A stretch of DNA of 54,312 bases, counting the filler, from Hypanus sabinus (Eukaryota), in NCBI RefSeq assembly GCF_030144855.1. It is 4 parts of 4 records of this genome, joined end to end, with 100 filler letters (N's around TTAATTAATTAA, not from the genome) between each part and the next. Parts side by side here need not be neighbours in the genome. Positions count along the whole stretch, not along the records: positions 1 to 8,119 come from NW_026779236.1; positions 8,220 to 16,208 come from NC_082714.1; positions 16,309 to 41,236 come from NW_026780939.1; positions 41,337 to 54,312 come from NW_026781544.1. One strand, given 5' to 3'. Shown piece by piece: positions 2,925-51,042 of this stretch. The notes beneath the pieces were generated by a model. That model did not search any database, had not been told where the DNA came from, and saw nothing but the letters and a program-made list of their open reading frames with translations. Each line of letters starts with the position of its first letter. The first letter of the stretch is position 1. The translations under genes were made by a program, and so were the position numbers.

Positions 2925-3590
2925 ATGTTCGTGTTATTGGAGCTGCTAATCTGGTTTCACGGTAAAGGACAGCTTCAATTTCCGAGTAGTTTAAGCAACC
3001 AATTCTGCATTACCCTTTCTGTGCTCCGTTAATTCTTGAAATATTTAATTTTCCAACGCTCTCTAGCTTTTCTTTCTCACTTTTTTCATCGTTGCGCCGG
3101 TTTGCAATTTAGTTTTCAACTTTGTCCATCCAATTATATTTATTTTATTCTATTCTCTCACTCACTTTCCCATTTTTTTCTCTTTTCCCCATATGTCTCT
3201 GCTTCCCGCATTTATCCTCTGCTTCCTTGCTCCCTTTCTCCATGATCCGTGTCTACCTGCCTACTGACGTCATACTCCGCTCCTCTCTTCCCCAGCCGCG
3301 AACTCACAAACTATCCGGCAGTCTCCACCGGCTTTTTCCGGATCTCTGGGGAACACGATGGCGCTATCCTGCAACGTGGAGGGCAGCAGCACTTATAACG
3401 TGTACTGGTCCCGCCAGTACCCGGGGCAGGGGCCGCAATTCATGTTCTACAGCTACGGAGCTAACTTTAGGAATCCAGACGGGGAAGTTGATGGATTACC
3501 CTGCAGGCGCTTAAAGATAACGAGAACAAACTGGTGACCAACAGCCTGAGGGTGAATCACTCGGCCGTGTATTTCTGCGCCTGGAGTCTA
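2925..3590 (+). pseudogene. TRBV: TCR V segment V1 (TRBV30-like CAWS family): leader exon 2925-2961, V exon 3296-3590, 1-nt deletion in FR3
   Basis: Leader ATG...CAC G|gtaaag encodes MFVLLELLIWFH (37 nt). Acceptor ctcttccccag|. V exon reads ANSQTIRQSPPAFSGSLGNTMALSCNVEGSSTYNVYWSRQYPGQGPQFMFYSYG...VDG, then in the shifted frame DNENKLVTNSLRVNHSAVYFCAWSL. Exon is 295 nt versus 296 in paralogs V2/V5, so one base is missing at about 3496-3516. Confidence 0.93.
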
Positions 3591-3629
3591 CACAGTTACG
3601 CGTCGAGAGGGGAGAGCTCGACAAAATCC
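3591..3629 (+). other. 23-RSS of V1
   Basis: CACAGTT + 23 nt + ACAAAATCC directly after the CAWSL codons. Confidence 0.93.
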
Positions 3630-5866
3630 CGAGACTGCCTGTAAAAGGCCTGACTGAGCAAGCACACTTGGCTCTGTGGTCGCGTCTTGTCTACCTTTGC
3701 ATTTGACAGAGGAAACGCGATGCAGACTGGAAGCAGAAGGGTTTTGTAACAACGGTGAGAGAGCAGGTGCCCAATCTTCTGGCAAGATGCCAGCTCTTAC
3801 ACCAGCACTGTGATGTCACGCACAGTCAGCACTCTCCAACAAGCCCCGTACTGACAACGATTTACCTGAATATGAGGCGGAATCGAGACCATGAGATTTA
3901 ATTGCACAGACGCTCTTTTGATTCTGCCCTGTCACAAACTTTCTGTTACCTGCTGTTTTCCAAAAGAGACGCTCTTCCTGCCTTTAGAAATGGAACACTT
4001 ATTTTTTTCCGGAACACCGGATTTACTTTCATTCTTTTATTTGTTTGCTTTCGATCGCCTTTACAATTAAAATTACCCCGTGAATTTCGCCGCCCATAAT
4101 TCCATGCTAAAATTATTTCATCTCATAGGAGACGTTACTCCGTCCTTCTGCCATCGACGCTGAGAAAGGAGAAACAGTCTCCCTTTCCTTGTGGAGGGCA
4201 TTGAGTATAAGGTGAAAGAAGTCGTAATCAACTGAAGGTGGATTAGACCAGAACCGGAATATTGCACACAGCTTGGACAGGAATGGTGTTGCGACAATAG
4301 GAAGAGAGGAGGAGATATTCATAGGAGTGCATCCTGGATAGGACGACTGCAGATGAATTGAGGATGGATCGGCCGGGCTTATTTTCACAAACGGGTTTAT
4401 ACTATTATAAAGGTCGAATGTAATTTGTTTGACAAGGTAGTCGGTCCATAACCACAAGGGCCATGTTTGAGCTCAGAGAGGAAACACTGATGGATTGTGA
4501 CCGGCACTGGATGTGAAAGGCAAGTTTATGAATGGGGTGAGGAGGTCGGCTGTAAGTGGGGGGGGGGAAATAAAAGCATCAGGAAAAAAAAAAGATGACG
4601 GAAGGGAGAGATTGTGAATGAAGAGAGGAGTAGGGTGTGAGTAAAAAATCAGCTGGAGTGTGGGGATGGAGGTAAATTAGGTAGATCAGGTTAAGCCGCT
4701 GTCTGTAAGAAGTTTCCACGTCCCGCCACTCTGCTCCGCTTTCTTCCCGCAGTCTACCGAAGTACTGGTGGTTAGGTTAATTGCTGGTTGCAAAATGCGC
4801 CGGGATGAGGCGAAGGTTAATTCTGAAATGGGTGGGTGGCGCGGCTTGAAGGAGGGTATTTAAAAACAAGAGAGTATGTGACTAAGTAAGGAAGAGAATA
4901 AACAAATAAGGTAATAGATAAGTAAGTAGATAGATAATTAGGAAGTACTGACAAACACATAAATAAATTGGACGATCTTCAAACTCTGATGGCTTCGTTA
5001 CTGAGCTGAAAACCCGTCACCGCAGCATACCTCGTTTAAACAAGGCCGGGATCTGTTGTCAGGAAAGGAATAACGACCTCACCAAGCGAGACAGCCCCAT
5101 CAAAACAGATGCCGAATAGACATGGCGATCTTCAGCTCCAGTGTTTCACGGTGCAACAGCGCTCCCTGCAGCCTCCGCCGTATATGCAACCCCGAAGTTA
5201 CTATTTGGCCAAAGGGAACCATTCTTCCCTCCAACTAACCATTGAACCTACGTGATACTTCTCCGTCCGGAGGAAACCCGACAAGATCACAGTGGGAACG
5301 TGCAAACTCAGCACAGAATTCAACGTGGGGTTTTCGGGTCGGAAACTCCCTCAGCTGCGCCAATGTGTCCAATGGAAGATTTAAAGACTTTCGTTGAAAA
5401 ATACCGAAGAGGAATTGAATCTGAAATAACTGAAAGAGGGGTCTTGATGAAGTGTATCAGATTCACTGATTGATGAAAACCGTATGCCTGCGTGTCCGAG
5501 TCCGGAGGCATCCAGGCGGCTTTCCTTGGATGTCTGAGCAAATGTAATCGGGTGGGGGGTGGGGGGACGAACGGGCTTTACTTGGCTGTGATCTGCCCTG
5601 GCATCTTTTCTCATTTTTCTGTCATGTTATTTTTCGATAGTCTATTGAACATTCTGTGCCTGAATGTGAGGCGACATTTGCGAGCCGACCCCAGCCCGTC
5701 CCAGGGTGTAACCTTTGTCAAAATTCTCAGCGGATTTCACAGCAGAGCGAACCGGCATGAAGAAGCTGACAATGTTTCCCCAATCACAGTGCGGATAAAC
5801 TTCTGTTATCAAGAATTGGGCTCAGGTGTTACACTCACTTAGTTCTCCGCTCCAGCGGCTGCCTGG

Positions 5867-5905
5867 GGTTTTTGCTCGTGGCCTCTATCTGTGTCAGTCG
5901 CCGTG
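5867..5905 (-). other. 23-RSS of V2
   Basis: Minus strand CACGGCG + 23 nt + GCAAAAACC. Confidence 0.88.
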
Positions 5906-49615: not shown

Positions 49616-50136
49616 CTTAAGATTTTATGGAATATGTGGGGAAAATGTAGGTGCCCACAAGGTCACGGCGGAAATGAAAACGAGCGCCATAACATCGTCC
49701 CGTTTCCCGCTGTGCTTCTTTACCGTGCCGCCCCGTAATCTTCACCACAACCCTGTGAGGATAACTTTCCTCACATCACCGTCCCGGCATCTGACAGCAG
49801 CTCGATCGGTGGTTTTGATCCCCGCACCTCACGCTCATCTGGAACAATCCCTCTGTTTCTCAGTGACACGGGCAGACTCATGCTTCTCGTCCGTCCCCCA
49901 CCCTTCACCCTCACACTCCTGCACCCCCCCCCACAAAAATCTCTCCCCCTCTCCCTCCTCTCCCACTCCCTTGCACTCCCTCCGCCGGCACCACGAGCGA
50001 ATCTGGAAAAAATCGCTTTCTTTCTCAGGACAACCTGCAGATGTGCCCTGCACGTGCTTTTTAATCCGCATGTGCGTGCCCTGTGCATCACAGATCACTG
50101 ACTCTCACAGATCACCTGCTTCCTGTCGCCGGCGAA

Positions 50137-50175
50137 GGTTTTTGTCGGGACCCGGCGTGTCTCTGAGCCACTGTG
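50137..50175 (-). other. 23-RSS of V7 (full consensus)
   Basis: Minus strand CACAGTG + 23 nt + ACAAAAACC. Confidence 0.97.
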
Positions 50176-51042
50176 ATGACTCCAGGCGCAGTAGCAGACG
50201 GCCGAATGGTCTGGGCGCACACTGGCCGAGCCGAGAATGAACGTCTCTGCATCGGGTCTCCGGGAGGTGAAGCCGTCCACAGCCCCCTCCGGAATTGCTG
50301 AGTCAATGTACGTAGAACGTAACAGGTACTGAATCTCCTTCCCCGGATATTGTCGGTATTGGTAGAGATTATTGCCAGCGCTACCGCCGTCCAGGATGCA
50401 TTTCAGCTCCACGCTCTCGCCGGGAGATTAGGAGATAGCCGGCGAGTCCTGGCGAACGGACTGAGACGTCGCTCCTGGGGAAGGGAACGGGAAGTGGAGA
50501 GAGTTAAGTTAACAGGAAACCCGAGTACGGGGGATCTATTGCTAAAGGGGAGGACGGGGGGTGGGGGAAATGGAACGAGGTGATCTGTCTGAGCAGATTT
50601 GGAGGATTCCGATCAATGGTAAGAAACGCTGATGGAAATATGAACATTGGGATTAAACAAGTACTAAAGAGCACAAAATATATTACTCTGATCGTTATTT
50701 TCATGTCCTCTTGAAACATTCGATTCTATACGGCATGTCCCGATTCTCTACAGTTTAGCAACACTCCGACCGCGTTGTCTTCTCTCTTGTACAAATTCGT
50801 GAATAATTTTAACTCTGAGCCCTCGCGATTATTGTCGACTTTCCCCGGAATGAAATGCGAGTCGACGCAAACCTCTCTTTGTATCTCGGACACGTTGATT
50901 CCAGCAAAATTCTGTCAAAACATTTCTGCACTCGTTCCAGTCTGCCAGAGTGACCAGATCTGGTTAAGGATTGAATATTAATTATTGTGTGAGATTATTT
51001 CTTACGCTGAAGCAACGGCGCCAGGACGAGTATCAGCAACAT
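50176..51042 (-). pseudogene. TRBV: TCR V segment V7 (TRBV30-like): leader 51042-51006, V exon 50474-50176, TAA in FR1 and conserved Trp replaced by Gln
   Basis: Leader MLLILVLAPLLQ + C|gtaaga (37 nt). Acceptor cttccccag|. ATSQSVRQDSPAIS*SPGESVELKCILDGGSAGNNLYQYRQYPGKE...DGFTSRRPDAETFILGSASVRPDHSAVCYCAWSH; stop at 50428-50430. Confidence 0.93.

Follow-up and report, generated by a model that had tools for sequence, protein, structure and literature searches.

TRBV30-like V gene segments, each carrying a lesion, in a 54-kb stretch of the Hypanus sabinus genome

The stretch of DNA analysed here (the window, 54,312 nucleotides including filler, from assembly GCF_030144855.1 of the ray Hypanus sabinus) contains six T-cell receptor (TCR) variable (V) gene segments and one decayed relic. 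Five of these segments, which share a CAWS-type end, group with TRBV30, and each of the five carries an inactivating lesion; the array is likely part of the TRB locus of the ray, a reading of the window as a whole to which we give a probability of about 0.82. The kinship of the five segments with TRBV30 is well supported by sequence comparison. It had been proposed in a preliminary description made from the sequence alone, and it is borne out by phylogenetic trees, by the ranking of chains of known structure and by a catshark gene model that combines such a V with J and C-beta. The numbering of the segments (V1, V2, V3, V4, V6 and V7) is that of the present analysis and does not follow the preliminary description.

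Kinship of the CAWS-type segments with TRBV30

The reference set was composed of 341 V domains out of 185 stored proteins which, together with the Vs of the window, were reduced to 275 rows, 109 of which were picked. In the maximum-likelihood tree of these 109 V domains (LG+G4) the five CAWS-type Vs fall in a 24-row clade (support 100/99) that also includes 11 other shark and ray Vs, five teleost Vs, one newt V, one caecilian V and donkey TRBV30. This clade, hereafter the clan, lies inside the TRBV group at 91/84, and the clan together with TRAV was recovered in 1 of 1000 bootstrap trees (48-row refined alignment); the phylogenetic check proposed in the preliminary description thus places the Vs with TRBV and not with TRAV, TRDV, TRGV or immunoglobulin (Ig) sequences. 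Under a mixture model applied to 48 rows, after deletion of the three AWS columns and of five long rows, the clan keeps a support of 96/94. A tree uniting donkey TRBV30 and five further mammalian TRBV is rejected by the approximately unbiased (AU) test (p 0.004), and so, marginally, is one that holds the elasmobranch Vs together in a single clade (p 0.034). Within the clan the elasmobranch members tend to be set apart as a subclade (85-89% bootstrap), and the amino acid identity between the window Vs and donkey TRBV30 is 34-42%. A FastTree of all 275 rows, which served only for the choice of references, misplaced V4 among IgH-like rows because of a poor quick alignment.

A profile of the five Vs searched against PDB pointed in the same direction: the top single-V chains were the beta chain of the Mel5 TCR (86.8 bits) and 5xov_J (86.6 bits), the rows above Mel5 being multi-V constructs, and the beta and alpha domains of the 42F3 TCR scored 55.9 and 51.4 bits, respectively. 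When V6 alone was used as query, Mel5 beta and 5xov_J were again first among single-V chains. According to the accessible text of PMC5887915, the Mel5 TCR is a TRAV12/TRBV30 receptor.

The closest homologues of the window Vs are batoid: V6 is 83% identical to a V of Mobula birostris and V7 is 78% identical to a Hypanus sabinus V. The orthologues have open frames in Mobula (V4 and V6) and Hypanus (V7), and a Mobula gene model keeps the order relic-V4-V6, while the flank of the array matches a Hypanus model. In bamboo shark (Chiloscyllium punctatum), nine clan-type gene models (tags in 0012171-0012188, eight of them with a CAWS end) lie on a 1.58-Mb scaffold, and the multi-copy state is common to this shark and the window. 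A CAWS V is joined to an ordinary TRBV on one strand in two gene models, P0005 (bamboo shark) and P0050 (caecilian). The Scyliorhinus torazame RefSeq model XP_072356531 (P0071) combines a CAWS V with a J and with a C1 domain, for which the best matches among the stored C sequences are shark and teleost C-beta. This C domain (residues 279-443) shares only 35-37% identity with the classical shark C-beta of Heterodontus and Pristiophorus, which are themselves 63% alike, suggesting that there appear to be two deeply diverged types of shark C-beta.

Clan members are also found as tandem multi-copy Vs in teleosts (P0015 of Coilia, P0027 of Electrophorus and P0144 of Pangasianodon), where they end in CAAS and stand next to donkey TRBV30, suggesting that the clan expanded in some teleosts too, without the CAWS motif.

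Structure, divergence and lesions of the V gene segments

All six V exons are followed by a 23-spacer recombination signal sequence (RSS) in the recombination-signal scan, and they have the architecture of TCR/Ig V gene segments, with a leader exon, an intron, a V exon of V-set fold and an RSS (Table 1). The SQT/SV-I-x-Q start, the DG(F)T motif and the CAWS-type end are present in five of them, V3 ending in CASDS; the orientations of these five are mixed (+ - + + -) and an RSS offset of 16 is common to all of them. Leader exons were located for the six Vs and measure 37 nucleotides in five; this length was considered as a marker of the clan and rejected as non-specific, because V3, which lies outside the clan, appears to have it too. 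The preliminary description gave 2925 and 51042 as the limits of the array, and these positions coincide with the leader start codons of the first and last V. None of the stored domains is closely related to V3 (best tblastn match 41%), which is an unplaced row on the TRBV side of the trees.

The five CAWS genes are far apart from one another, with pairwise identities of 56-65% in nucleotides and 40-49% in amino acids. The threshold for a TRBV subgroup is 75% nucleotide identity, as stated in the available part of PMC10464911, and the five do not form a single subgroup by this measure. They are better seen as an old clan of deeply diverged subgroups than as the one expanded family that had been described at first.

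If a functional V gene is taken to have an open frame, Cys23, Trp41 and Cys104, none of the five CAWS genes is functional and V3 is the only segment of the window that is. The five are broken in this assembly by one frameshift (V1), three stop codons (V4, V6 and V7) and the loss of Cys104 (V2), and V1, V4 and V7 present further changes at conserved residues besides the main lesion. The stop of V4 corresponds to a CpG site at which CGA has become TGA. In four of four related sequencing runs position 32350 is C rather than T, which suggests a recent or private origin of this stop, and at this codon the frame is also open in the main high-depth contigs of X2, X3 and X4. Hence the signature reported for five of the six V exons is present as far as its motifs go, although none of the five genes is intact, and it was an overstatement to say that the family dominates the array, since the members present are pseudogenes in this assembly. 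For the same reason the window adds little function.

Table 1. Coordinates of the V gene segments and other features of the window (positions count along the whole stretch)
Feature	Position	Strand	Remarks
V1 leader exon	2925..2961	+	37 nt, GT donor
V1, CAWS-type V exon, pseudogene	3296..3590	+	frameshift near 3510-3520
V1 23-RSS	3591..3629	+	CACAGTT-23-ACAAAATCC
V2 23-RSS	5867..5905	-	CACGGCG-23-GCAAAAACC
V2, CAWS-type V exon	5906..6201	-	frame open; second Cys codon (Cys104) is TCC (Ser) at 5920-5918; Pfam V-set
V2 leader exon, candidate	7127..7163	-	37 nt; N gap within intron
V3 leader exon, candidate	17798..17834	+	37 nt; N gap within intron
V3, CASDS-type V exon, outside TRBV30 clan	18555..18852	+	sole V without visible lesion; 23-RSS at 18853-18891
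DUF4371 frame	24248..25597	+	449-codon open frame
Reverse-transcriptase fragment	26511..27221	+	retroelement remnant
Decayed V relic	28800..29060 (approx.)	+	SAVLFCAC end, degenerate RSS; best matches are CAWS-clan Vs; touched by Mobula gene model
V4 leader exon	31072..31123	+	TTG at 31087 where Mobula leader has start ATG; in-frame upstream ATG at 31072
V4, CAWS-type V exon	32138..32433	+	TGA at 32350-32352; 23-RSS at 32434-32472
High-copy interspersed repeat inserted into another repeat	33386..33790 (limits approximate)	.	contains 33421-33717
V6 leader exon	36008..36044	+	37 nt
V6, CAWS-type V exon	36523..36821	+	TAG at 36678-36680; 23-RSS at 36822-36860
Paired N runs	41237..41336		probably also 8120-8219 and 16209-16308
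GDSL/SGNH esterase-like frame	41861..42694	-	retroelement remnant
Rhodopsin-family receptor frame	44198..45172	+	324-codon open frame, between V6 and V7
V7 23-RSS, perfect consensus	50137..50175	-	0.00 expected in 100 shuffles
V7, CAWS-type V exon	50176..50474	-	TAA at 50430-50428; Trp41 codon replaced by CAA (Gln)
V7 leader exon	51006..51042	-	37 nt

Three relics of the same type had been mentioned in the preliminary description. The one at 33421-33717 proved to be an interspersed repeat without V homology: reading the six frames through stops gave no V-set match, there was no tblastn or hidden Markov model (HMM) hit and no RSS within these limits, and contig depth reaches ~8,600-55,000 in three related runs versus ~40-200 in most flanking bins, its CAW being due to chance. 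Another, called V4 there and given no coordinates, may be the decayed relic of Table 1, the sole further relic detectable, and nothing that could be the third (V8) was found in the window by tblastn or HMM searches. Weak tblastn matches near 41.5 kb and 45.6 kb were discarded as V relics.

Several other elements are found between the V genes. The reading frame located between V6 and V7 codes for a G protein-coupled receptor (GPCR; Pfam 7tm_1, E 2.7e-19), the nearest Atlas clusters being named GPR139-like, and it may lack a first exon. The DUF4371 frame is presumably the remnant of a hAT-type transposase, and the GDSL/SGNH esterase-like frame is probably CR1 ORF1. The N runs are paired, 44 bases each and 12 bases apart, with a short TTAA-repeat linker between them in the pair that was viewed, and are probably an assembly artefact. 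Rfam gave no match in the window.

The locus and the alternative explanations

In a TRB locus, RAG acts on a D-beta that has previously been joined to a J-beta and connects its 12-RSS with the 23-RSS of a V, by deletion or inversion depending on the orientation, and the transcript is spliced to C-beta. If the array belongs to such a locus, its D-J-C clusters would lie outside the window. Since their RSSs are near consensus, the five CAWS genes may still be able to recombine, giving V domains that contain stops, are frameshifted or lack the disulfide; as these products would be non-productive or unfolded, only V3 would be expected to yield a working chain from the window.

Several points weigh against the assignment of the five Vs to the TRBV30 clan and of the array to TRB. 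The references were gathered using a profile of the window's own Vs, the sole mammalian TRBV30 in the trees is that of donkey (so named in UniRef), the trees are built on only 92-95 columns, and the TRA, TRG and Ig labels were assigned by us from motifs, one "TRG-like" row being named light-chain-like at its source. In the mixture-model tree of 53 rows without the three AWS columns the support of the clan falls to 70% and a long TRG-like row is attached to it. Neither a J motif nor an RSS-flanked D core nor a C-region match is present in the window. No rearranged full-length CAWS chain was found among 60 candidate proteins or in a search of proteins of 371-2000 residues, a range that excludes the class of ~300 residues, and XP_072356531 is a product of automated annotation whose V and J are separated by junk. 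Finally, the AU test does not reject the elasmobranch CAWS Vs grouped with TRAV/TRDV (p 0.125).

The last result would be expected if the CAWS Vs belonged to a TRA/TRD locus, or served a non-beta constant region, and their likeness to TRBV30 were incidental. The FastTree built on the quick alignment, which nested one TRAV group among the CAWS Vs, leans the same way, and the 23-spacer RSS located 3' of the Vs, which fits TRBV and is necessary but not diagnostic of a TRB locus, does not tell these loci apart. We nevertheless consider this explanation extremely unlikely: the refined alignment almost never joined the clan to TRAV, the C at the end of the catshark model is of beta type, the two basking-shark domains of P0024 lie outside the clan, and TRBV30 beta chains head the ranking of single-V chains in PDB. 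It is also very improbable that the five represent a TRB V lineage exclusive to elasmobranchs, whose resemblance to TRBV30 (terminal motif and indel pattern) arose by convergence. The separate elasmobranch subclade, the low identity to donkey TRBV30 and the drop of support in the 53-row tree could be read in this way, but the clan survives the loss of the AWS columns, it includes teleost Vs that end in CAAS, with intermediates in teleosts and amphibians, and donkey TRBV30 cannot be held together with the other mammalian TRBV.

Two further explanations concern the state of the genes and not their kinship. The stretch could be a decaying duplicate or orphon of a V array, made of true clan genes that are detached from the working TRB locus or redundant with it. 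The lesions, found in all five CAWS genes and more than one in several of them, are in agreement with this possibility, as are the GPCR reading frame inside the array and the branch of V6, ~4-5x longer than that of its Mobula orthologue. Moreover, a segmental duplicate of the array is hinted at by two contig versions, one close to the window and one more diverged, that cover the same unique stretches (window 30000-38000) in related runs: X1 records 2 and 3 (2 and 11 differences), X3 records 21-24 and X5 records 27 and 28; X1 is ~99% alike in the flanks and 96% over V4, where it has no stop. A duplicate or orphon is nonetheless unlikely, because V3 looks intact, the RSSs have not drifted far from consensus, the gene order fits the Mobula model and the flank the Hypanus model, and the lesion of V4 is recent, as judged from the main X2, X3 and X4 contigs. 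Alternatively, the genes could be intact in the animal and the lesions be errors of a draft assembly, as might be suspected from the nine N gaps of the window and from the V4 stop, seen in none of the four related runs. We find this very unlikely, given that four of the five lesions are substitutions, that the V4 stop is of the CpG type and that V1, V4 and V7 have additional changes at conserved residues; five independent errors confined to the CAWS genes would be hard to expect. The assignment of the five broken genes to the TRBV30 clan, in an array that is likely part of the ray TRB locus, is therefore retained.

Origin of the clan and comparison with known systems

The tree suggests that the clan arose before the split between sharks and bony fish, so that it was likely present in the common ancestor of jawed vertebrates; it would have radiated into several elasmobranch subgroups by birth-and-death evolution and shrunk to one gene in mammals. 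The preliminary description had claimed that the multi-copy family is ancestral to jawed vertebrates, which probably holds for the lineage, whereas the expansion seen here may be specific to elasmobranchs and later than the divergence of bony fish, as suggested by their separate subclade. In papers of the 1990s, a trout V-beta was reportedly likened to human V-beta-20, the old name of TRBV30. With this analysis, the lineage to which the inverted TRBV30 of mammals belongs is found on both sides of the divergence of cartilaginous and bony fish, and many of its subgroups appear to be retained in sharks and rays.

The arrangement of the bamboo-shark TRB locus is relevant in this context. As described in the accessible part of Giorgetti et al. 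2023 (PMC10322711), it has two D-J-C clusters placed back to back, with 35 Vs of either orientation around them. Each of two outer arrays comprises 15 of these Vs and is located 3' of the nearer C and inverted to it, the other five being inner Vs, and two C genes are tabulated with separate primers. From the table of that paper, which in the available version gives coordinates only, the intron begins at leader base 38 in 16 of the 35 Vs, every one of which is in an outer array, and we infer that the nine clan-type bamboo-shark models correspond to the outer arrays. The published beta 1 and beta 2 primer sites matched the two C-beta types with weak scores (16-18 vs 11-15), a hint and not evidence. 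It can be speculated, with the odds against it, that the clan is not only ancestral to jawed vertebrates but makes up about half of the shark and ray V-beta germline, filling two arrays each 3' of the nearer C-beta and inverted to it, and that mammalian TRBV30 owes its backwards 3' position to this ancestral layout and not to a later translocation; the clan might even prefer the second shark C-beta, which is deeply diverged (35% identity to the classical C-beta), in parallel to the TCR-epsilon of squamates. Whether the inverted 3' V is an ancestral or a derived state becomes testable using existing assemblies and repertoire reads.

A literature search, made mostly at the level of listings and confined to openly available papers, found no paper placing shark or ray Vs in the TRBV30 clade. 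Published work on the 3'-inverted TRBV clade describes five members in tuatara, includes axolotl Vs and places the clade as sister to squamate TREV (PMC11754216, accessible text), and multiple inverted Vs are reported as common outside mammals (PMC12698447, likewise). As far as the available text of both papers goes, multi-copy Vs of the inverted clade are known in tuatara, alligator, axolotl and newt, the family is modelled as having left an ancestral array of forward orientation for its inverted 3' position, and no cartilaginous-fish V is placed in the clade, three nurse-shark TRBV rows being listed for the tree. The inverted clade of amniotes and salamanders resembles the window in being multi-copy, and a Pleurodeles V falls in the clan defined here. 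The contrast with a mammalian singleton drawn in the preliminary description was overstated in that the multi-copy state is not peculiar to cartilaginous fish.

The bamboo-shark TRB Vs (PMC10322711, in the parts available) share with V1, V2, V6 and V7 the intron at base 38 of the leader, and an RSS offset of 16 is common among them, as in the five CAWS Vs of the window. In contrast to the broken genes of the window, almost all of them are scored as functional, those of CAWS type being identified only indirectly. In mammals, the single inverted V located 3' of the C genes is orthologous across human TRBV30, mouse Trbv31 and opossum TRBV28 and belongs to group F (PMC2275272, accessible part). 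These mammalian genes and the window Vs have in common the clade of donkey TRBV30, the CAWS end, the SQTIxQ-type start and the 23-RSS; in contrast to the mammalian singleton, the window holds at least five deeply diverged copies within 54 kb, in both orientations and all of them broken.

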